Assembly (NCBI GenBank): GCA_964609615.1
Contig: CAZSRL010000002.1
Span: 7,933 to 71,932 of the forward strand
DNA: 64,000 nucleotides
Direction of reading: 5' to 3'
DNA from: an uncultured Muribaculaceae bacterium
GTDB lineage: Bacteria > Bacillota_I > Bacilli_A > RF39 > UBA660
In this document: positions 231 to 60,104 of the stretch, piece after piece
Position numbering within the stretch: the stretch's first letter is position 1
Layout: each line of letters starts with the position of its first letter
Made by a program: the position numbers and the translations under genes
The notes under the pieces: model-generated
The model's database searches: none
What the model saw: the letters and a program-made list of their open reading frames with translations, nothing else
Told to the model about the DNA's origin: nothing

Positions 231-306
231 GCCTGATTAGCTCAGTTGGTAGAGCGCACGGCTGTTAACCGTTAGGTCGTAGGTCCGAGTCCTACATCAG
301 GCGCCA
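231..306 (+). tRNA. tRNA-Asn (anticodon GTT)
   Basis: Cloverleaf: acceptor GCCTGAT/ATCAGGC, D-loop AGTTGGTAGAGC, anticodon loop CTGTTAA, T-arm GGTCCGAGTCC, encoded CCA. Confidence 0.9.
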
Positions 307-10212: not shown

Positions 10213-10752
10213 TTAGCTATTTTGTAACTGTTTATTTTTTATTTCATTATCATACTTTTTAATTGACATAATACTAAAAGTAATTTCAAAAACGTTTCCA
10301 AGAATACCTAAATACGCTCCTACATATAAATTATACAATATCCATAAACATGCAGATGCAAATATTAATATATATGTTACTTTAACATTTTGTTGCCATA
10401 TAGAATATACATATGCAAGCGTTATAACTATTGGAATTAATGTAATTAATCCATTATATGCTATAACCCCTACAAATAATACTAATGCAGAGAATATAAT
10501 TAAAATGTATTTGGGAGGTTGTTTATTATCTTTTACATATTCATAAGTTATAAAGCATCTAATGAATGAAAGACCATTCATTGCTGCCGCTGTAAATGCA
10601 ATTAATATAATATACTCAATACCATATAAAGCATTAGCTATCATTTGAAAAAAGACTATTTTTTTCATGTCAGATTGTTTTATTGAATATACCCAAACAA
10701 TTATTGCAAACAATGCAAATACTTGAGCAACAATATTAATACTTAAATTCAT
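10213..10752 (-). CDS. YgjV-like inner membrane protein
   Basis: 179 aa, 5 TM; similarity is by pattern only. Confidence 0.4.
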   Translation of the reverse strand: MNLSINIVAQVFALFAIIVWVYSIKQSDMKKIVFFQMIANALYGIEYIILIAFTAAAMNGLSFIRCFITYEYVKDNKQPPKYILIIFSALVLFVGVIAYNGLITLIPIVITLAYVYSIWQQNVKVTYILIFASACLWILYNLYVGAYLGILGNVFEITFSIMSIKKYDNEIKNKQLQNS

Positions 10753-11395: not shown

Positions 11396-11469
11396 TGGCA
11401 GGGGTAGCAGGAATTGAACCCACATCAGCGGTTTTGGAGACCGTTATTCTACCATTAAACTATACCCCT
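11396..11469 (-). tRNA. tRNA-Trp (anticodon CCA)
   Basis: rc reads AGGGGTATAGTTTAATGGTAGAATAACGGTCTCCAAAACCG...TACCCCTGCCA; anticodon loop CTCCAAA. Confidence 0.85.
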
Positions 11470-19522: not shown

Positions 19523-19552
19523 AAAAAAAACTATTGTTTTAAATAGTTTTTA
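19523..19552. terminator. hairpin terminator
   Basis: A8-CTATTgttttaaATAGT-T5. Confidence 0.5.
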
Positions 19553-20698
19553 TTTATATATATACCCATCAACAGGTTTTAAATAATCTGAATTATTTGT
19601 TACTAATTCTAAGTTTTGATTCTTATAATCTACTTTATTTGAATTATATGAATCATAAAAGCCAAGTTCAGCTTTATATATTTCTCCTGTGTCTGTATCT
19701 ATTACTCTATCATATCCTAGTGTTGCATCACTGTTTTTTTGAGAAATAACGTCATATGTTGTTTGCCTTTCGCTCCATGCATTATTGTATGATTCATATG
19801 CCGCACTCATTTGTTTCATATTATTTAATATTGATTGTGTTTCAGCATTGTTTTGTTGTATTCCTTGTTGTACATATGAATCACTTAGTTTTAAACTTGA
19901 CAGAGCTTTTGCTAAATCCTTTTCTAAATATAAAAATTCATTCTCCGGAGCAAATATACCCATTACAGAATATGCCATCATAGGAACTGTATCAGCTCCC
20001 GATACATTATAAGACCCGGGTATCATAATACTTGCAGCAAATAATCCTTCATTAGTGGTTGTTCCACTACTTGTAAAATGCGCTCTTACCATTCCTTCGT
20101 TCGCAGCTGCAGATGATAACAGTGATTTATAGGGCAATTCTTCAATTATTTTAAAATTGTTTAATGCTGTAAAATTATATTCTTTTCCATATACACTAGC
20201 ATATTGTCTAATTTGAGGCCAAATAGTAAATAGTTGTTTTGCTGTAGCTGGATTTAATACTGGAGCATCTCCAAAATATTCATAGCCCATACCTGTTGTA
20301 ACTTTGGCAAACCCCGACATTAAATTCTTTGCTTTTTGACTCTTCATAAATGGCTCTAATTTTCCATAATAGAATATTTGATAATTTGGATTTACAGGAT
20401 CATATGCTTTAAAACCAAATGTTTCATATTTTCCAACAGTATCTATTTTCCATCCTTTAGGTAATGTCATTGTGAAATAACCCCCGTTATATTCCTCAAG
20501 TGTTAAACCAGGTTTCTCAGATTTTTTTATTGCTATTTCTTGCTTATTATTAAATAAATTGTGAGTTTTTGTATTAGTTTTCCCATCTTTCCCACATACT
20601 GTAAATAATGCCACTAGTAAAATAACAATAGCGGTAATTGATATTATTGCTATACTTTTTCCCTTTGAAGTTTTAATCCATAATTTTATTTTATTCAT
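19550..20698 (-). CDS. hypothetical lipoprotein (about 380 aa)
   Basis: Start placed at internal MNKIKLW; signal peptide plus lipobox-like LFTVC; no recognised domain. Confidence 0.5.
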   Translation of the reverse strand: MNKIKLWIKTSKGKSIAIISITAIVILLVALFTVCGKDGKTNTKTHNLFNNKQEIAIKKSEKPGLTLEEYNGGYFTMTLPKGWKIDTVGKYETFGFKAYDPVNPNYQIFYYGKLEPFMKSQKAKNLMSGFAKVTTGMGYEYFGDAPVLNPATAKQLFTIWPQIRQYASVYGKEYNFTALNNFKIIEELPYKSLLSSAAANEGMVRAHFTSSGTTTNEGLFAASIMIPGSYNVSGADTVPMMAYSVMGIFAPENEFLYLEKDLAKALSSLKLSDSYVQQGIQQNNAETQSILNNMKQMSAAYESYNNAWSERQTTYDVISQKNSDATLGYDRVIDTDTGEIYKAELGFYDSYNSNKVDYKNQNLELVTNNSDYLKPVDGYIYK

Positions 20699-21191
20699 TA
20701 TAATTATCTCCTTTATAATCAATTTCAATTTCTGATAAGTTTTCATTTCCTTTTATATAATATTGTCCATCATTTTCAGGTATTTTATTATCTTGAAATG
20801 AAAATGAAACACTATCTTCATCATTTGTAAATAAGTATGTTATTGTTGTTTGGGTTGAAGAAATATTATTCTTTCTCCCTGTTAACCTAATCTTAGACAA
20901 AGCATCAAATGTATCATTAATTGTTTTTTTATCATTTATTATTTTAGGTTCCTCTCCATAAGTACAATGATTTATGTAAATAGTAAGTTTTGGAGGATCA
21001 TTTTTATCATATTTGTTAGCCCAATTAACAACATTTTTCCCTTTGAATTCAAACAATGTTATGTTTTTTACATGAAAATCATACATTTTTGGTTTGTTAA
21101 GAACTATAATATAAATATAAAGAATAAAACCTATTATAATCGCCATAGCAACACTTACAACAATTAAATTAAAATATTTCTTGTCTTTCAC
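20691..21191 (-). CDS. hypothetical N-terminally anchored membrane protein (166 aa)
   Basis: One TM helix then a soluble domain; 8-nt overlap with the downstream lipoprotein gene. Confidence 0.5.
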   Translation of the reverse strand: MKDKKYFNLIVVSVAMAIIIGFILYIYIIVLNKPKMYDFHVKNITLFEFKGKNVVNWANKYDKNDPPKLTIYINHCTYGEEPKIINDKKTINDTFDALSKIRLTGRKNNISSTQTTITYLFTNDEDSVSFSFQDNKIPENDGQYYIKGNENLSEIEIDYKGDNYNE

Positions 21192-21251: not shown

Positions 21252-21980
21252 TTAATAAAAAACTTTGTTCAAATATAAACCTTCACTTGGAGCAGTAACT
21301 CCAAGGTTACTTCTTTTTCCACTTTTTAATATTTTTTGAACTTCTTCTATTTTAATCTTTTCCTCATTAATTCCTATATATAAACCTATTATATTCCTAA
21401 CCATATATCTTAAAAAACCAGATGCTGTTATATAAATATAAACATAATTTTTATCTTTTTTTATTTTAATATCATATATTGTTCTAATATAATTATCTTT
21501 TATATTTTTCTCAGGTGTAAATGTTTTAAAATCATGAGTCCCCTTTAATAATTTATTTATTTGTTTTAATTTTTTTATATTTAACTTTTTACAATATTGA
21601 TAAACATAGTCTTTTTCAATAGGATTGTAAGTTCCAATATTTATTTTATATAAATATTGTTTCATTTTAACACTATATCTTGCATGAAAACTAGGTTCCA
21701 CTTCTTCTATTTTATATATGTATATTTCTCTATTTAAACTTGTATTTAAATAAAATTTTAACTTATTAAGCTCAACAGGTTCTGAAATATCAAAATGAAT
21801 ACATTGATTATAAGCATGAACTCCTTTATCAGTTCTTCCGCTTCCTACTGTTCTAATCTCTTTATTAAATCTTTTTTTTAAAGCCTCTTCTATTTTACCT
21901 TGAACAGTTTTTTTTCCTTTTTGTTTTGCATAACCATTATATTTACTACCATCATAGGAAAGGTATAAAAGACATCTCAT
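21252..21980 (-). CDS. truA: tRNA pseudouridine(38-40) synthase TruA
   Basis: YDGSKYNGYAKQ...GSGRTDKGVHA (catalytic Asp); AGGAGG RBS before ATG at 21980. Confidence 0.9.
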   Translation of the reverse strand: MRCLLYLSYDGSKYNGYAKQKGKKTVQGKIEEALKKRFNKEIRTVGSGRTDKGVHAYNQCIHFDISEPVELNKLKFYLNTSLNREIYIYKIEEVEPSFHARYSVKMKQYLYKINIGTYNPIEKDYVYQYCKKLNIKKLKQINKLLKGTHDFKTFTPEKNIKDNYIRTIYDIKIKKDKNYVYIYITASGFLRYMVRNIIGLYIGINEEKIKIEEVQKILKSGKRSNLGVTAPSEGLYLNKVFY

Positions 21981-22725
21981 AATATATTTCCTCCTCATAT
22001 ATAATTAATAAAAACATAGATAAATGAATTATGACAAATATAAAATCTACACTTTCTATTCCTTTATATTTTAACTTAGCTTTTTTTTCATCATTATAAA
22101 GCATAAACTTTTTCATTGTTTTTTGTTTATTTAACTTTCGTTGCGTTAATTCTAATCCTTTGGTAAACATATTACAATATGCTTTTAATTTAGTTTTCAA
22201 ATCTACACAAGTTATATCCACACCCCTACTTTTTTCTTTATTAACTACATTTTTTGATGAAATTACTAATTCAGGCAAAAATGATATGAAATCCACCAAT
22301 TTATCAGCCAATTTATTATAATTAATTTTTATTTTTCCAAGAGGTTTAAACAGTATTACAAAACACTTTTTTAATTCAATTGGTGAACTACTACTATAAA
22401 TAAAATAACCATAAATAAACACAATTTGAAAACTTAATATCAAATAAATAGTTAAATAAATATTTATAGTTAATAAACAAGCAATAACTAATAAAATATT
22501 TATAAACCATAAATCTTTAATGTATTTAAATATGTTTTTCAAATGGAATCCTGATGCTCTTATAAGAATTAAGAGAATAATAAAATAAAAACCTAAAAAT
22601 AATAAATTATGATTTAGTATTATAAAAGCTAGACTTAACAAAAAAGAAAAAATCTTAGTAAATAAATTTAATCTAAATATTTTAGGATTAATACAATTAG
22701 AACAATATAAATTATTAACGTGCAT
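21952..22725 (-). CDS. ecfT: ECF transporter transmembrane component EcfT
   Basis: Polytopic CbiQ-like protein in conserved ecfA-ecfA-ecfT-truA context. Confidence 0.65.
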   Translation of the reverse strand: MHVNNLYCSNCINPKIFRLNLFTKIFSFLLSLAFIILNHNLLFLGFYFIILLILIRASGFHLKNIFKYIKDLWFINILLVIACLLTINIYLTIYLILSFQIVFIYGYFIYSSSSPIELKKCFVILFKPLGKIKINYNKLADKLVDFISFLPELVISSKNVVNKEKSRGVDITCVDLKTKLKAYCNMFTKGLELTQRKLNKQKTMKKFMLYNDEKKAKLKYKGIESVDFIFVIIHLSMFLLIIYEEEIYYEMSFIPFL

Positions 22726-23554
22726 TTCTATATACCTCCTTTGCTAAATCTTTTACATTATCAAAGTATTTGAATTTTTTATCAATTAATCTCACTTCAT
22801 TAACAAAAGAAACTATTTTAGGTACACTTAAACCAAGACTTTTTAATAATACTTCATCATGCATTATAGTTTTCTTACCTTCTTTTACAATTTTTCCGTT
22901 ATTAAGCAAATAAATGTAGTTAGCAAAAGAATAAATAAAATCAGTATCTTTAGTTGTTATTATTACTATTTTGTTATATTTGTTTTTAAGTATATTTAAT
23001 AGCCTTATTAAATCATTTTTTTCTTTGTTATTAAGTCCAATTGTTGGTTCATCTAATATAATAATCTTAGGATTAAATGTTAATACTGATGCAAGAGCAA
23101 CTTTTCTAGCATCAGCTAAATTAAGAATATTTAATTTTTTTGTTAAATAACTATCATTTAATCCAACAAGTTTTAAAGAATCTAGTATTCTTTTGTTTTT
23201 TGATTTGTATTTATATTTAAAATATTTTAATCCAAATGATAATTCATCTTTAACCTTGTTTGAAACAAACATCTCCCTAGGATTAGAAAAAACGTAACCA
23301 ACGTTAAATCTTAAATTATTATAGTTTTTTTTCAAAGTTTTACTATAATAATTTCCTACTTTTACTAGACCAAAATCAGGTTTTTCTAAAAAATTAATCA
23401 ATTCACATATTTCAGTTTTTCCACTGCCTGACTTTCCTACAAACCCATATATTCCTTTTTCCTTAACGTTAAAACTAACGTGATCTAATAAAATCTTTTT
23501 TTTAAAACATGACTGGTTTTTCAATAAACTTACTTTGTTAAACTTTATTTCCAT
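22715..23554 (-). CDS. ecfA2: ECF transporter ATPase EcfA2 (signature motif degenerate)
   Basis: Walker A GKSGSGKT, Walker B IIILDEPT; signature replaced by LNLADARKVAL. Confidence 0.7.
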   Translation of the reverse strand: MEIKFNKVSLLKNQSCFKKKILLDHVSFNVKEKGIYGFVGKSGSGKTEICELINFLEKPDFGLVKVGNYYSKTLKKNYNNLRFNVGYVFSNPREMFVSNKVKDELSFGLKYFKYKYKSKNKRILDSLKLVGLNDSYLTKKLNILNLADARKVALASVLTFNPKIIILDEPTIGLNNKEKNDLIRLLNILKNKYNKIVIITTKDTDFIYSFANYIYLLNNGKIVKEGKKTIMHDEVLLKSLGLSVPKIVSFVNEVRLIDKKFKYFDNVKDLAKEVYRNAR

Positions 23555-24351
23555 AGTTTACTCACCAGCCTTTTATTACTACAATAATACTTCTCTAATA
23601 AATTATAATCCATTAAGATTTTGCATAATTCAATACTAAATGGCAATCCAAAACCAAGTTTTTTTAATAACCTATCTTCATTTAATACACTTAGAGTGTT
23701 TCCTTCTGCGATTATGTATTCATAATCAGTAAGTATTATATTATTTCCATATAAACACTCTTCAACATTATTAGTAAAATTAATAATACAATTATCTTCA
23801 CGAGAATATTTTTTTAATATTCGTATTATAAAATTTTTGTCATTATAATCTAAATGTTCTAAAACATTGTCTAATACAAGTACTTTTGGTTTAGTTAATA
23901 AAGCACATAGTATTTTTACTTTGACTTTATCGGTATTTCCAATACTAGTTGGATTACATTTTAAGATATCACGTATTTTATATTTAAATGATAATTCAGA
24001 TAGTTTTTCAATTATTTTAATATTACTCATCCCTAGGTTTTCAAGAACAAATGAAATTTCTTCCTCTACAGTTGGACATATAAAAATATTTAAATTTTCA
24101 TTTAATACAACATTTATTCTTTTAGCAATTTTAAGCGTTTCTATTCCTTTAAAAGACATATAATTAATTTTAATATAATCATTTTTTTCTAAATTATATA
24201 TATTATTAATAATTCTTTTATTTCCTTTACCCATTATAGTAGTAAAGTCTTTTTCGTTTACTATAAAATTAAATTTTTCGTTCTCATAATATTTAAATAA
24301 TGACATAAAACCCACCACGTTTATATTATACAACAAACAACAAAAAAACAA
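23545..24351 (-). CDS. ecfA1: ECF transporter ATPase paralog EcfA1, catalytically degenerate
   Basis: ABC fold but Walker A is IMGKGNKR, Walker B VLVLDN (Glu to Asn), signature SIGNTDK. Confidence 0.6.
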   Translation of the reverse strand: MFFCCLLYNINVVGFMSLFKYYENEKFNFIVNEKDFTTIMGKGNKRIINNIYNLEKNDYIKINYMSFKGIETLKIAKRINVVLNENLNIFICPTVEEEISFVLENLGMSNIKIIEKLSELSFKYKIRDILKCNPTSIGNTDKVKVKILCALLTKPKVLVLDNVLEHLDYNDKNFIIRILKKYSREDNCIINFTNNVEECLYGNNIILTDYEYIIAEGNTLSVLNEDRLLKKLGFGLPFSIELCKILMDYNLLEKYYCSNKRLVSKLWK

Positions 24352-24381: not shown

Positions 24382-24945
24382 CTATCTTATTATTTCTACT
24401 TCATCTCCTGTTGATAACCCAAGTGCGTTACTTTCATCCGTATCTAAATGTGCTTCAAACGTATATTTTTCATCTACTTTAATATTTGTATTATTAAGTA
24501 TTCCTCCTCTTTGAGTATATATTTTTAAAGATACTATTTCTTTGTCTTTTAAGTTAAGCTTTTTGCTAGTTTCTAAGTCAACATGAATATGTCTTTTAGC
24601 AATAATGCATGATTCCTTTATATTAATTTCTCTTTCACCGTTTATTAGAGTTATATCTTCAGAACCTTTTAAATCTCCGCTATCTCTTACAGGAGGATTT
24701 ATGCCAAGTTTTACTGCATCTGTTTTTGAAATCTCTACTTGATTATGTTTCCTAAGTGGTCCAAGTATTCTAACGTTTTCTATCATATTAGTTTGCGTTT
24801 TAATAGTTAATGTTTCACTGCAAGTATATTGTCCTTTTTGAGATAAATTTTCTTTTTTTGTAAGAGGCTTATCACCAAATAAAATAATTTTTGTATCTAA
24901 ATCTAAATGTACATGTCTTGCTGAGACAGCTATCTTTGTTTTCAT
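24382..24945 (-). CDS. pduL: phosphate propanoyltransferase PduL-like
   Basis: Duplicated motifs SARHVHL and AKRHIHV typical of PduL/EutD-type. Confidence 0.7.
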   Translation of the reverse strand: MKTKIAVSARHVHLDLDTKIILFGDKPLTKKENLSQKGQYTCSETLTIKTQTNMIENVRILGPLRKHNQVEISKTDAVKLGINPPVRDSGDLKGSEDITLINGEREINIKESCIIAKRHIHVDLETSKKLNLKDKEIVSLKIYTQRGGILNNTNIKVDEKYTFEAHLDTDESNALGLSTGDEVEIIR

Positions 24946-25028: not shown

Positions 25029-25364
25029 ATGAATGGAAGTTTTTATAATAATGCAATGTATAATCAAGGTGTAAGTAATAATTATGAAAGCACAAAAATA
25101 CCAGTAGAAACAGTTAATGATTTACCAATGGAACAAAGTTATATAGAAAACATATTAAGATTAAATAAAGGTAAAAAAATTACTGCTTATGTTTCTTTTC
25201 CAGACAGTGTTGAATGGAAAGATAAAAAATTTAATGGAATTGTAGAACAAGCCGGAAGAGATCATTTAATAATTAGTGATCCTAATACAGGAAAATGGTT
25301 TTTGATTTTAATGATTTATTTAGACTATGTAGAATTTGATGAAAGAATTAATTATAGGGTTTAA
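25029..25364 (+). CDS. gerQ: spore coat protein GerQ-like
   Basis: EQSYIENILRLNKGK...GRDHLIISDP.TGKWFL..M.YLDYVEFDE pattern. Confidence 0.5.
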   Translation: MNGSFYNNAMYNQGVSNNYESTKIPVETVNDLPMEQSYIENILRLNKGKKITAYVSFPDSVEWKDKKFNGIVEQAGRDHLIISDPNTGKWFLILMIYLDYVEFDERINYRV

Positions 25365-32419: not shown

Positions 32420-33163
32420 TTACTTATTTTTCTTTTCTTTATTAGCGTATAAAATATAAAAACCAACTAAAAATCCACCAATAATATTTCCTATAGTTAC
32501 CGGTAGTAAATTATTAAATAATGCATCACATATACTTATTTCACTTGTTAAATATCCCATACTCAAATAAAACATATTTGCAACACTATGTTCAAATCCT
32601 AAAATTATAAAGACCATTATAGGGATAAATATACAAAATATTTTAGATATGGTATCTTTGTTTATAAAAGCTAAATATACTGCTACACAAACTAAAATGT
32701 TACAAAATATACCAAGTATCATTGCATTAATAAATGTTAAACTTGTTTTTGTAACAGAAATAGATGCAAATTTATTAAATAGCAAATCATTTGCTTCAAC
32801 ATTTCCTGCATAATATATTACAAGAGCAACAATAATACTTCCAATAAAATTTCCAATATAAACCCACAACCAATTATTTAGTAATTGATTTATTTTTATC
32901 TTTTTCTTAATAATTGGAATTATTAACAACATGTTTCCAGTAAACAATTCTGTTTTCATAAGAATAACAAGTATTAACCCGACCGGGAATAATAATCCCA
33001 TTACAAGTTTCGCAACGCTTGGCAAACTAATACTATATGAAGCATAAACGCTTATTGCACCTGCTAGAGCAATAAACATTCCTGCTAAAATTGAAAGAAT
33101 TATTAGTTTGCAAATATTATTATTTACTTTTTGTATTCCTGATTTATTATATTCTTCTATCAT
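32420..33163 (-). CDS. formate/nitrite transporter (FNT) family channel
   Basis: ELFTGN and GFEHSVANMF signature motifs. Confidence 0.8.
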   Translation of the reverse strand: MIEEYNKSGIQKVNNNICKLIILSILAGMFIALAGAISVYASYSISLPSVAKLVMGLLFPVGLILVILMKTELFTGNMLLIIPIIKKKIKINQLLNNWLWVYIGNFIGSIIVALVIYYAGNVEANDLLFNKFASISVTKTSLTFINAMILGIFCNILVCVAVYLAFINKDTISKIFCIFIPIMVFIILGFEHSVANMFYLSMGYLTSEISICDALFNNLLPVTIGNIIGGFLVGFYILYANKEKKNK

Positions 33164-35095: not shown

Positions 35096-36196
35096 TTATA
35101 CATTAAATCTAAAATGACAAATATCTCCATCTTTCATGATATAATCTTTTCCTTCAACTCTTAACTTCCCATTTTCTTTTACTTTTAATTCGCTTTTATA
35201 TTCAATCAAATCATTATATGTTATTACTTCGGCTCTAATAAACCCTCTTTCAAAATCTGTGTGAATAATTCCTGCACACTCTGGTGCTTTCATTCCTTTA
35301 GTAAATGTCCATGCTCTGCATTCATCTTCTCCAACTGTAAAGAATGTTTCTAAACCTAATAATTTGTATGTGATTTTAATAAGTTGATCTAGTCCACTTT
35401 CTTCTACTCCAATTTCTTTTAAAAATTCGTTCTTTTCTTCTTCATTTAATTCGGATAATTCACTTTCTAATTTTGCACACATAATAATCAATTCACCATT
35501 AAAATCTTTTAAATAATCTTTTAATTTTGAGATAAAAACATTTTCTTTATTTATCATTTCAATTTCAGAAACATTTGCTAAATATATGATTGGTTTTAAT
35601 GTGATGAAATTAAAATTTTTTATTATTAAAAGTTCCTCTTCTGAAAATGATATCAACCTTAAAGCAATATTTTTTGAAAGAGCATCTTGAATTTTTTTTA
35701 ATACTTCCAATTCTTGCTTTGTTTCTTTATCATTTGTTGTTTTTGCCTTTTTTTCTATCTTACTAATTCTATTTTCTGCTATTTCCAAATCGCTAATAGT
35801 TAATTCTAAATTTATTATTTCTATATCCCTTACCGGATCAACGTTTCCTTCAACATGTGTTATATTTTTATCTTCAAAACATCTTACTACTTGTACGATT
35901 GCATCCACTTCTCTAATATGAGATAGGAATTTATTTCCTAATCCTTCTCCAAGTGATGCCCCTTTAACTAAACCGGCAATATCCGTAAATTCATACATTG
36001 TGGAAATTGTTTTTTTAGGATTGTACATTTTTTCTAAAACAGCAAGTCTGCTATCTGGTACAGTAACCATTCCAATGTTTGGATCAATAGTAGCAAACGG
36101 ATAATTTTCTGCTAAAATGTTTTTTTTAGTTATTGCATTAAATAATGTACTTTTCCCAACATTAGGCATCCCTATTATTCCTGCTTTAAGCGACAT
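35096..36196 (-). CDS. ychF: ribosome-binding ATPase YchF
   Basis: MSLKAGIIGMPNVGKSTLFNAIT; TGS domain at C-terminus. Confidence 0.9.
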   Translation of the reverse strand: MSLKAGIIGMPNVGKSTLFNAITKKNILAENYPFATIDPNIGMVTVPDSRLAVLEKMYNPKKTISTMYEFTDIAGLVKGASLGEGLGNKFLSHIREVDAIVQVVRCFEDKNITHVEGNVDPVRDIEIINLELTISDLEIAENRISKIEKKAKTTNDKETKQELEVLKKIQDALSKNIALRLISFSEEELLIIKNFNFITLKPIIYLANVSEIEMINKENVFISKLKDYLKDFNGELIIMCAKLESELSELNEEEKNEFLKEIGVEESGLDQLIKITYKLLGLETFFTVGEDECRAWTFTKGMKAPECAGIIHTDFERGFIRAEVITYNDLIEYKSELKVKENGKLRVEGKDYIMKDGDICHFRFNV

Positions 36197-37724
36197 ATTC
36201 AACTCCTGGGAGAGCACCAACGCCTAATGGCATTCCTGTAATATACCATCCAATTACTAATACTATCCATATTGCTAAGACTGCAAACGAATACGGAATC
36301 ATGTACTTCATACTACCAAACAATGTTATCATTTCTCCTTGAGAAGAATTATATTTTTCCAAATAAGCAATATAAATTACAAAATATGCTAGTAATGGGG
36401 TTATGCCATTTGTTACACTTGAACCAGCAGTATACACTATTTGAGCATATTCTGGTGATAAAGATGCATTTATAAAGACTGGGACACTAACACCAATCAT
36501 AGCCCATTTTAAAGTAGGACTCGGATATACTAAATTAGTAAGCATTGCTCCAATAAATAAAGTTAATACAAGTGGAAGTCCTCCTACTTCAAGATTTGAT
36601 AAGAAATTTGAAAATAACGCAACTAAAACTGAACCAATTTCCGTTTTCTTAAATACACTAATAAATAGTGAAGCGAAAAATATTAAAACTAATATATTTC
36701 CAATTTTATCTAAAGAATAATTAAAACCATCAGTTACATCTTTATTATTTTTAATATTTTTAACAATAATTCCATAAAACACACCAACAAGAATAAATAA
36801 CATTGCAACTATAAATACAAATCCATCATTAAATAATGAAGTCTCTCCAAAAATTTTATCTATATAATACTTTCCATTTGGTTCTATAAGAGCTCCCGAA
36901 AAAGGTAATCCAGGAATAATCATATATACTACAATCAAAATATAAACAAATCCAGCGCCTAAACCAATAATTAATCCTTTTAAATCTTTATTAGTTAGTT
37001 TAACTTCCTCTACTTCCTCATTTTGAACTGGTTTCGGTAATTTTGGCATAATTATTTTTTCAGTAATATATGTCATAACAAATGACATAATAAATAATGC
37101 TGTAATCATTATTCCTACTGAAAAGAAAGGACTTATTGTATAATTTGTATCTAACACTTTTGCACTGTTCAAGGTTATAGAAAGAAGTGTACTATCTGTT
37201 ACACTCATAAAAACGTTCACACCATATCCAAAAGACATAGCAGCAAATGATGCAATAATACCTCCTAATGGATTTCTTTTTCCATACTTAAATAATAACG
37301 CTCCCATAGGTAACATTATTACATATCCTAAATCTCCAACAAGTGAGAAGAAAATACTAATAAATATTAACCAAAAAGTTAAAGTGTTTTTTCCGCATGT
37401 TTGAGTTAATAATGTAAAAAATGTTTTAGAAAAACCGGTTTTTTCCATTACCCCAATACCTATCAAAGTTATAATAAGCATACTTAGTGGAGCAAATGAT
37501 ACAAAACCACTTACCGCATTAGTAACAATAAATTTAAGCCCTGCTAAACTAAATAAACTAGTGACAGACACTACATTGTTGTCAAAACCACCAGTTACAG
37601 TATTAACCGTATTATAATCTGATTGCAAATTGAAAAACGCTAATATCCCACTTACAACAATGGTTATTCCAGTTAATAGTATAAACATCATCGTAGGACT
37701 TAATTTAAATTTATTTCTCGTCAT
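36186..37724 (-). CDS. AbgT-family transporter
   Basis: 512-aa polytopic protein with AbgT-like N-terminus and YGKRNPLGGIIASFAAMSFGYG segment. Confidence 0.6.
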   Translation of the reverse strand: MTRNKFKLSPTMMFILLTGITIVVSGILAFFNLQSDYNTVNTVTGGFDNNVVSVTSLFSLAGLKFIVTNAVSGFVSFAPLSMLIITLIGIGVMEKTGFSKTFFTLLTQTCGKNTLTFWLIFISIFFSLVGDLGYVIMLPMGALLFKYGKRNPLGGIIASFAAMSFGYGVNVFMSVTDSTLLSITLNSAKVLDTNYTISPFFSVGIMITALFIMSFVMTYITEKIIMPKLPKPVQNEEVEEVKLTNKDLKGLIIGLGAGFVYILIVVYMIIPGLPFSGALIEPNGKYYIDKIFGETSLFNDGFVFIVAMLFILVGVFYGIIVKNIKNNKDVTDGFNYSLDKIGNILVLIFFASLFISVFKKTEIGSVLVALFSNFLSNLEVGGLPLVLTLFIGAMLTNLVYPSPTLKWAMIGVSVPVFINASLSPEYAQIVYTAGSSVTNGITPLLAYFVIYIAYLEKYNSSQGEMITLFGSMKYMIPYSFAVLAIWIVLVIGWYITGMPLGVGALPGVEYVA

Positions 37725-59966: not shown

Positions 59967-59985
59967 ATTTTTCTCCTAAAAAAAT

Positions 59986-60058
59986 GATGCACACATATAT
60001 TGAGTGTTATAGCTGCTATCTTCCGATTCTGACTAGTTTCCACTATATATGTTGCATC
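59986..60058 (-). ncRNA. ffs: candidate short-form signal recognition particle RNA (4.5S-like)
   Basis: Minus-strand hairpin GATGCA-CATATAT-GTG-TAG-uCAGaaucGGAAgauAGCAGCUA-CAC-ATATATG-TGCATC then U7; core GUCAG-N4-GGAA-N3-AGCAGC matches SRP RNA helix 8. Confidence 0.5.
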
Positions 60059-60104
60059 TATTTAATTATATTATTTTTTTAAAAATTTATCAACTTATAT
60101 TTAT

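Follow-up and report, generated by a model that had tools for sequence, protein, structure and literature searches.

The 64,000-nucleotide stretch of contig CAZSRL010000002.1 (GCA_964609615.1) that was analyzed here, referred to as the window, carries on its minus strand an ecfA1-ecfA2-ecfT operon, which on the basis of its sequences is the energizing module of an energy-coupling factor (ECF) transporter of the shared group II type. The host is an uncultured gut Bacilli lineage of RF39 type with a GC content of about 25%. The motifs of the two ATPases indicate that the composite ATP site formed by the cis motifs of EcfA1 and the signature stretch LNLAD of EcfA2 (site I) is dead on both halves and should allow neither canonical ATP binding nor canonical hydrolysis. 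The other site, formed by the cis motifs of EcfA2 and the stretch IGNTD of EcfA1 (site II), would combine a P-loop and a catalytic glutamate with otherwise non-canonical residues. This assignment of one dead and one non-canonical site follows from the head-to-tail dimer, which pairs the Walker A and B motifs of each subunit with the signature of its partner. The module is a candidate for a natural single-site, possibly no-canonical-site, ECF motor in an uncultured gut lineage and as such of interest to the ATP-binding cassette (ABC) and ECF transporter field.

Identification of the ECF Module

The best NCBIfam model for EcfA1 is TIGR04520 (ECF_ATPase_1) with 98 bits, which is under the curated equivalog cutoff of 315, and the score with Pfam PF00005 (ABC_tran), 22.8 bits, lies below the gathering threshold of 25. 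Among the solved structures, EcfA1 of L. delbrueckii (8bmr_A/5jsz_A) is the best match with E = 1e-17, and the alignment extends to the last residue of 5jsz_A. EcfA2 is matched best by TIGR04521 (ECF_ATPase_2) with 173 bits, under the equivalog cutoff of 330 as well, passes PF00005 with 70.4 bits and has the EcfA2 structure 4mki_B as best solved-structure match (E = 3e-33). More than 495 homologs of EcfA2 were found at E < 1e-30.

For the product of the third gene, no Pfam or NCBIfam match was obtained, even at E ≤ 1. It was assigned as EcfT, since a profile of the third genes from related loci matches EcfT 4hzu_T in the PDB (E = 5e-28) and a profile from which the window lineage was left out matches the window protein (E = 2e-26).

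The minus-strand gene order is PduL-type gene, ecfA1, ecfA2, ecfT, truA, two unannotated open reading frames (ORFs) and rplM; rpsI also follows. The same gene order was found in at least 45 related loci, with ecfA1-ecfA2-ecfT beside truA, rplM and rpsI as in Firmicutes. The locus was identified as an ECF module because of the best NCBIfam and structure matches, the match of the EcfT profiles and this genomic context. A first-pass annotation made from the sequence had recognized EcfA1 and EcfA2 by the context ecfA-ecfA-ecfT-truA, which agrees with all of these results. It had also taken the upstream gene as 23545-24351 with a TTG start codon at position 24351. This start was not confirmed. The ATG at 24306 is almost certainly the start codon, because the orthologs are about 253 amino acids long, independent gene calls agree and a ribosome-binding site is located 4 nt upstream (Table 1).

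Motif States of EcfA1 and EcfA2

The motif states were determined by residue-level alignments to the solved structures of EcfA1 (5jsz_A/8bmr_A) and EcfA2 (4mki_B), and their positions are listed in Table 1. In EcfA1, the stretch IMGKGNK/RIIN, in which the slash marks a deletion of three residues, aligns against IVGHNGSGKSTLAK and contains no GK[ST]. The catalytic glutamate of Walker B as well as the Q-loop glutamine and the H-loop histidine are each replaced by asparagine, and the D-loop aspartate is retained (LEHLD). The AlphaFold2 model of EcfA1 has a mean predicted local distance difference test (pLDDT) score of 78.7, with values mostly above 80 over residues 1-180 and a very C-terminus of low confidence. 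It shows the fold of a nucleotide-binding domain (NBD) with EcfA1 8bms_A as best structural match in the PDB, and a strand (residues 21-26) is followed by a two-residue loop and a helix (29-37) where the P-loop would be located. The C-terminal helical extension of the ECF type is present, as indicated by the alignment to the last residue, the conservation of the region and the fold match to 8bms_A.

In EcfA2, Walker A and the Asp-Glu pair of Walker B are intact. The Q-loop glutamine is replaced by serine, the D-loop aspartate by asparagine and the H-loop histidine by lysine. Two canonical ATP sites, each with Walker A and B, Q-, D- and H-loops and an LSGGQ signature, are not present in the module.

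These alignments revealed no canonical Walker A or signature residues that had been misplaced in the first-pass annotation. It had correctly described EcfA1 as lacking Walker A and carrying asparagine instead of the Walker B glutamate, and EcfA2 as keeping Walker A and B with LNLAD in place of LSGGQ. The EcfA1 signature, given there as SIGNT, is indeed degenerate, but it was read one residue out of register, as LSGGQ aligns to IGNTD. The exchanges in the Q- and H-loops of EcfA1 and in the Q-, D- and H-loops of EcfA2 had been overlooked. The predicted pair of one dead and one partly degenerate site holds in its composite logic, but the surviving site is more strongly altered than had been assumed, namely by the three loop exchanges of EcfA2.

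The constraint on EcfA2 was assessed with 113 cluster representatives of its clade, which carry lysine or arginine at the H-loop and are 45-71% identical to the window protein. Walker A (GxxxxGK) and the Walker B aspartate are present in all 113 and the Walker B glutamate in 111, whereas the Q-loop glutamine was found in only one representative (lysine being the commonest residue) and the D-loop aspartate in none. The H-loop position is occupied by lysine in 104 and by arginine in 9 representatives, and the signature consensus is L-x-L-x-[DE]. The residues for ATP binding and the catalytic base are thus strongly constrained, whereas the classical "helper" residues were exchanged for others.

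Conservation and Selection of EcfA1

Homologs of EcfA1 between 100% and 37% identity show the same degenerate states at a near-constant length of mostly 253 amino acids. The pattern is shared by 44 distinct P-loop-less orthologs, and a representative library of 1.84 billion proteins contains EcfA1 without a P-loop in about ten clusters at 50% identity. In the 44 sequences, the C-terminal region is most conserved (mean column entropy 0.70 versus 1.55 overall). It is followed by what is left of Walker B (LVLDN) and of the H-loop (NFTN) and by the helix behind the Q-loop, a region which forms the EcfT groove in solved structures. The remnant of the P-loop shows only average conservation. Asparagine occupies the Walker B position in 36 of the 44 family members, and the consensus at the signature position, [IL]G.[ST][DN]K, is moderately conserved. 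The pairwise ratios of nonsynonymous to synonymous substitutions (dN/dS) are 0.16-0.33 for ecfA1, 0.18-0.37 for truA, 0.19-0.59 for ecfA2 and 0.35-0.83 for ecfT; these values are approximate, with dS near saturation (0.7-1.3).

According to these sequence comparisons, ecfA1 is kept under purifying selection and is not decaying, because the 44 orthologs keep the pattern, its dN/dS matches that of truA and the P-loop-less loci form one clade. It is therefore very improbable that, in a reduced genome with relaxed selection, these genes are eroding and heading for loss. The very high AT content of the genome, which appears fast-evolving, the scores of all three proteins far under the curated family cutoffs and the variation of motif erosion among sub-lineages would fit such a decay, but there are neither frameshifts nor internal stops, the length is essentially constant in the 44 orthologs, the replacement motifs (DN, NFTN, LG.SDK, TKDT) are themselves conserved, and the P-loop-less state is common to the whole clade, which has by now diverged to 37-50% identity. 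An artifact of the assembly, the sequencing or the genetic code is practically excluded: two other assemblies (L001, L002) carry ecfA1 DNA without a single difference, a third one (L003) encodes a protein with 100% identity, and dozens of species-level relatives show these motif states as well. Furthermore, the window including the neighboring genes reads cleanly under table 11, and a single tRNA-Trp, with the anticodon CCA, was found in it.

Degeneration in Related Modules

The same overlapping triad was found in 45 GTDB species representatives, all of which are metagenome-assembled genomes (MAGs). They are labeled as uncultured Bacilli, Mycoplasmatota, Mollicutes or "Clostridium sp. CAG:1000"; the family CAG-1000 belongs to the GTDB order RF39 (PMC8035907). 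The representative MAGs of L004, L007, L035, L040 and L046 are titled "uncultured Muribaculaceae," "Paludibacteraceae" or "Clostridium sp." despite ribosomal and ECF operons of the Bacilli type, and these submitter labels look wrong for the contigs in question.

The related modules of uncultured Bacilli (L019-L049, L088) are orthologous operons, which form a graded series toward the state of the window. At its canonical end are the modules of Erysipelotrichia, Clostridia and Sporosarcina. Mild intermediates differ from the window in having both P-loops, a Q-loop exchange of glutamine for glutamate and the signature LSSGE. In further members EcfA1 is catalytically dead with a P-loop still present (Walker B DN or DD, H-loop histidine to asparagine or serine), and the end state is the P-loop-less EcfA1 as found in the window. 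In a neighbor-joining tree from EcfA2 and EcfT only, calculated without support values, all P-loop-less loci group in a single clade surrounded by partly degenerate lineages.

In addition, modules with other combinations were identified. Four loci (L041, L043, L044, L046) show the opposite polarity with a degenerate site II: the signature of EcfA1 is lost and its cis motifs are largely canonical, while the H-loop histidine of EcfA2 is replaced by lysine or serine in all four and its Walker B reads DD in L041, L044 and L046. A mirror image of the window module was found in L048 and L088 (L088:3001-5250). Here, EcfA1 keeps its P-loop (GNNTSGKTT) with Walker B DN, threonine instead of the H-loop histidine and the signature LTNSE, and the P-loop of EcfA2 has a three-residue deletion (GI/TGEYKS), with DE, the Q-loop glutamine and LSTGE being kept.

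A profile of the catalytically dead, P-loop-bearing EcfA1 matched more than 1,200 clusters at 90% identity (E ≤ 1e-20), and DN is present in 98 of the best 119 matching clusters. Metagenomes or MAGs are the source of all these clusters, and no named one comes from a cultured organism. The loss of cis motifs in one subunit is accompanied by the loss of the signature in its partner, in both polarities and in different lineages. As Spearman correlations between cis and trans motifs are confounded by phylogeny, they were not used as statistics, and the discordant lineages were considered qualitatively only. From the motif patterns, ECF ATP sites have degenerated widely in this uncultured radiation, following the composite-site logic in both polarities.

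Anchors of the Divergent EcfT

Compared with the window lineage, relatives with 45-55% identity in the EcfA proteins reach only 18-25% in EcfT; EcfT of this lineage has diverged far more than the two ATPases. The first X-Arg-X anchor of EcfT is retained at the end of the coupling helix CH2. At the second anchor, on CH3, the canonical MEVRGY aligns to ELRLYN in relatives and to KFMLYN in the window; the arginine position is R or K in relatives, methionine also in L084 and L085, and leucine in L086. In the L. delbrueckii structures, CH2 docks into the groove of EcfA (EcfA1) and CH3 into that of EcfA' (EcfA2) (PMC10368641). The invariant arginine anchor should therefore dock into the dead subunit, and its retention is consistent with EcfA1 being kept as a structural partner.

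Proposed Mechanism and Alternative Explanations

The reading toward which we lean, with slightly better than even confidence, is that EcfA1 acts as a structural pseudo-ATPase and that the module works with a single ATP site on EcfA2, probably with slow turnover. One ATP would be bound between the P-loop of EcfA2 and the IGNTD stretch of EcfA1, which would close the heterodimer. The closure would push the coupling helices of EcfT and, in the manner of canonical ECF transporters, expel the empty S-component, and hydrolysis at the EcfA2 site would reset the module. EcfA1 would serve as the other jaw of the clamp, providing the C-terminal dimer contact and the groove for CH2, and site I would be a permanently nucleotide-free interface. 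Dimer cohesion in ECF modules is already provided by the C-terminal domains. Since the EcfA2 site has a lysine at the H-loop and lacks the Q-loop glutamine, the D-loop aspartate and a canonical trans signature, its turnover is probably slow and of a non-standard chemistry, or the lysine is used differently.

In the canonical cycle, the two halves of the EcfA-EcfA' dimer close by about 4 angstroms on binding of Mg-ATP, the coupling helices change from concave to convex and the S-component is expelled; ATP binding and not hydrolysis drives this step, and hydrolysis resets the module (PMC10368641). In the turnover state of L. delbrueckii ECF-FolT2, ADP was found in EcfA' and unhydrolyzed ATP in EcfA (PMC10368641). 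By analogy, this asymmetry is consistent with a single-site mechanism.

Several observations weigh against the single-site reading. A single E-to-Q mutation in either L. delbrueckii subunit is severely defective in vivo, so both sites matter in the canonical module (PMC10368641). The H-loop mutants HisP H211R and MalK H192R retain less than 2% activity and HlyB H662A less than 0.1% (PMC6222333), so the EcfA2 site may barely hydrolyze ATP. Furthermore, a canonical signature motif is absent from both subunits, and EcfT of the window lineage lacks the arginine anchor of CH3, the helix that docks into EcfA' (EcfA2). Among the relatives, the L088/L048 lineage has no site that joins a P-loop with a catalytic glutamate. 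Within the P-loop-less clade, L031 and L034 also show an eroded Walker A of EcfA2 (GDSESGIYK and GDSKSGKEK, respectively) and EE instead of DE, so that possibly neither subunit of these modules has a nucleotide site. Such eroded and split sites may hint that hydrolysis is dispensable in this radiation. Finally, no S-component gene was found in the window, in the 10 kb past its start or beside the module in 28 related loci. The window ORFs with at least three predicted transmembrane segments encode YgjV, ABC-2, DUF975, FNT, MscS, AbgT and similar proteins, none of which is an S-component, and the membrane ORFs beside the module in relatives encode FNT and DUF308 proteins. The absence from 64 kb says little, since group II systems normally have their S-component genes dispersed over the genome (PMC8566771). 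Vitamin transport by the module is therefore an assumption.

The main alternative, though a rather unlikely one, is that the module is an ATP-gated and essentially non-hydrolyzing scaffold, in which EcfA2 binds ATP, EcfA1 binds none and the cycle is driven by binding and release of the nucleotide. Vitamins would then accumulate through high-affinity S-components and metabolic trapping and not through ATP hydrolysis. This would explain why the EcfA2 site does without the H-loop histidine, the Q-loop glutamine, the D-loop aspartate and a canonical partner signature, and it would fit the near-inactivity of the H-loop His-to-Arg mutants of HisP and MalK (PMC6222333), the split residues in L088/L048 (P-loop with DN in EcfA1, DE with a truncated P-loop in EcfA2), the erosion of the EcfA2 Walker A in L031 and L034 and S-component expulsion by ATP binding alone in canonical ECF transporters (PMC10368641). 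However, if catalysis were irrelevant, neither the Walker B glutamate in 111 of the 113 EcfA2 representatives nor the strict restriction of the H-loop position to K or R would be expected. In addition, the accepted cycle needs hydrolysis for the reset, and E-to-Q mutants, which bind ATP without hydrolyzing it, are non-functional in vivo (PMC10368641).

A broader version, which was regarded as unlikely, would apply to the whole radiation. ECF-type uptake of micronutrients would be independent of canonical ATP hydrolysis, and the module would be a platform on which S-components dock, gated by nucleotide or, in some lineages, working without it, with accumulation through high-affinity binding and metabolic trapping. 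This would be compatible with the window clade having no full catalytic set at any site, with the separation of P-loop and catalytic glutamate onto different subunits in the L088/L048 lineage and with the erosion of both P-loops in L031 and L034.

It is less probable still, and in our view improbable, that the module was recruited to a job other than S-component-dependent import, e.g., to a structural or regulatory membrane complex which uses the C-terminal domains of the EcfA proteins and the divergent EcfT. The standard Firmicute ECF operon with its gene order, overlaps and truA-rplM-rpsI context in every relative, as well as the continuous series from canonical to degenerate modules, argue against such a recruitment, whereas the extreme divergence of EcfT, its dN/dS of 0.35-0.83 and the lost arginine anchor of CH3 could be explained by it. 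The same holds for the lack of an S-component and of a vitamin riboswitch in the window, where the Rfam scan of the 64 kb yielded only two tRNAs and the signal recognition particle (SRP) RNA; the first of these is weak evidence given the scattered S-component genes (PMC8566771).

Comparison With Known Transporters

The module resembles the canonical group II EcfA-EcfA'-EcfT complexes of L. delbrueckii (5jsz/8bms) and L. brevis (4huq/4hzu) in its three proteins, gene order and neighborhood, in the NBD fold with the ECF-type C-terminal extension and in the long coupling helices of EcfT with the first X-Arg-X anchor. In contrast, a canonical module has a complete pair of ATP sites and depends in vivo on both of its catalytic glutamates (PMC10368641), whereas EcfA1 of the window has no P-loop, catalytic glutamate or H-loop histidine, both signatures are non-canonical, EcfA2 has a lysine at the H-loop, EcfT lacks the second arginine anchor, and the scores of all three proteins fall far short of the family cutoffs.

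A close likeness was found to the fully degenerate nucleotide-binding site 1 (NBS1) of the yeast PDR-type exporter Pdr5, where the Walker B glutamate is replaced by asparagine, the H-loop histidine is exchanged and the signature of the partner reads LNVEQ (PMC7756269). Both systems show the degeneration of a whole site spread over two NBDs, with DN, an H-loop asparagine and the partner signature LNLAD in the ECF module, and judged by these residues the apparent convergence is striking. However, Pdr5 keeps its P-loop with only the lysine changed to cysteine and has a consensus second site, whereas the module combines a deleted P-loop with a second site that is itself non-canonical. Moreover, Pdr5 is a single-chain exporter with an unrelated membrane architecture.

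In TM287/288, TAP1/2 and CFTR, one consensus-like site is likewise combined with one non-hydrolytic site, and the changes in Walker B or H-loop are matched by the signature of the partner (PMC3971661, PMC7756269). The degenerate site of TM287/288 binds nucleotide and helps to hold the NBDs together (PMC3971661), whereas that of the module has no phosphate-binding loop. With respect to this exporter paradigm, the module shows the loss of cis motifs (DN and NFTN in EcfA1) together with the loss of the partner signature (LNLAD in EcfA2). A P-loop at the degenerate site is missing according to the sequence (GKGNKR) and the modeled two-residue loop, and the second site lacks the consensus residues (histidine to lysine, glutamine to serine, aspartate to asparagine, IGNTD in trans). 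The asymmetry known from heterodimeric exporters, with which the module had been compared at first, thus applies to the cis/trans logic, but the dead site without a P-loop goes beyond the ATP-binding degenerate sites of exporters.

Degenerate sites also occur in some non-ECF importers, e.g., the fused ATPases of CUT2-family sugar importers. No degenerate ATP site in an ECF transporter was found described in a full-text literature search, which agrees with the view of the first-pass annotation that the asymmetry had not been described for ECF importers; most subscription-journal papers are outside the scope of this non-exhaustive search, and the novelty is therefore provisional. A review of degenerate sites from 2020 makes no mention of ECF transporters (PMC7756269), and a review of Mycoplasma ECF transporters does not mention Walker motifs or degenerate ATPase sites (PMC8566771). 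The chloroplast ECF-like ATPases ABCI10 and ABCI11 were considered as a precedent and rejected, as all classical motifs are present in them.

Implications for ECF Transporters

Many Firmicutes take up vitamins mainly through ECF transporters, which are pursued as antibiotic targets. The number of ATP molecules per ECF cycle and the role of each site are an unsettled question in the field. Mutants with E-to-Q exchanges made in the laboratory cannot show whether one site is sufficient, since they are severely defective in vivo and trap the closed state. The RF39-type clade, together with its intermediate and mirror-image relatives, has long retained a module that can have no more than one nucleotide site and hence represents a natural experiment. 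It bears on the questions of whether a single ATP sandwich can drive the EcfT spring, whether a lysine can stand for the H-loop histidine and what purpose an NBD without a P-loop serves. As TIGR04520, TIGR04521 and Pfam CbiQ miss such modules, the vitamin-transport capacity of these uncultured lineages is likely under-annotated.

Genomic Neighborhood

Table 1. Features of the ecf locus in window coordinates.
Feature	Position	Strand	Remarks
PduL-type phosphotransacylase gene	24382-24945	-	First in minus-strand order, ahead of ecfA1
Ribosome-binding site GGTGGG	24311..24316	-	4 nt upstream of ATG 24306; read directly
ecfA1	23545..24306	-	EcfA1 ortholog of 253 aa, predicted pseudo-ATPase; ORF maximum 23545-24351
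EcfA1 P-loop remnant GKGNKR	24214..24231	-	Residues 26-31; in place of GxxGxGK[ST]
EcfA1 Q-loop region VVLNEN	24094..24111	-	Gln to Asn; alignment to 8bmr_A
EcfA1 signature equivalent IGNTD	23929..23943	-	At LSGGQ position; contributes in trans to the sole possible ATP site
EcfA1 Walker B VLVLDN	23866..23883	-	Catalytic Glu to Asn (DE to DN); alignment to solved EcfA1
EcfA1 H-loop equivalent NFTNN	23767..23781	-	His to Asn; alignment and family conservation
EcfA1 start of C-terminal region GNTLSVLNEDRLLKKLGFGLPF	23638..23703	-	Most conserved stretch of the family; aligns to C-terminal region of 5jsz_A
ecfA2	22715..23554	-	EcfA2 ortholog of 279 aa; sole subunit with a P-loop; 10-nt overlap with ecfA1
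EcfA2 Walker A GKSGSGKT	23414..23437	-	Intact; alignment to 4mki_B
EcfA2 Q-loop GYVFSNP	23279..23299	-	Gln to Ser; alignment to 4mki_B
EcfA2 signature equivalent LNLAD	23111..23125	-	Contributes in trans to the dead site
EcfA2 Walker B IIILDE, then D-loop TIGLN	23030..23065	-	Asp-Glu intact, D-loop Asp to Asn; alignment to 4mki_B
EcfA2 H-loop TTKDTD	22940..22957	-	His to Lys; alignment to 4mki_B
ecfT	21952..22725	-	Membrane protein of 257 aa, very divergent EcfT; 11-nt overlap with ecfA2
EcfT first X-Arg-X anchor KSRGVD (SRG)	22216..22233	-	C-terminal end of coupling helix CH2; R167 and G168 invariant
EcfT second anchor position KFMLYN	22093..22110	-	Conserved CH3 Arg to Met in the window lineage
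truA	21252..21980	-	Downstream of the module; TIGR00071 with 213 bits (cutoff 143); 242 aa in the L001 gene call

The PduL-type gene directly upstream of ecfA1 encodes a phosphate propanoyl/acetyltransferase (PTAC family, 209 bits), whose position is kept in relatives, and may serve as the phosphotransacetylase of the host. In several relatives, a gene of the FNT family is located directly upstream of ecfA1. Two ORFs without family matches lie between truA and rplM (19550-21191, minus strand), encoding proteins of 166 amino acids and of about 382-398 amino acids, the latter with an N-terminal hydrophobic segment. Both are missing from the relatives L084-L086, where rplM and rpsI come straight after truA. 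A scan for promoters and terminators was uninformative in this AT-rich DNA, with 48 matches compared to 36 expected ones, and of such signals only the ribosome-binding site read from the sequence was used. A candidate second ECF module at 53.6-56.7 kb was rejected, as the translations are those of pth, rsmI-like, PSP1-like and holB-like genes.

Furthermore, genes of the spore-coat type were found in this reduced Bacilli genome of about 25% GC. Spore_GerQ (25029-25364, plus strand) adjoins the ECF operon, and CotJB together with a gene similar to Mn-catalase/CotJC is located just past the window start (L087:2992-4023). A transporter of the AbgT family (p-aminobenzoyl-glutamate type) at 36186-37724 (minus strand) represents a non-ECF transporter of small molecules. 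In addition, a channel of the formate/nitrite family (32420-33163) and a membrane protein of the YgjV family (10213-10752) are encoded on the minus strand. Finally, a small SRP RNA (59971-60068, minus strand), a tRNA-Asn(GTT) (231-306, plus strand) and the tRNA-Trp(CCA) (11396-11469, minus strand) were identified.

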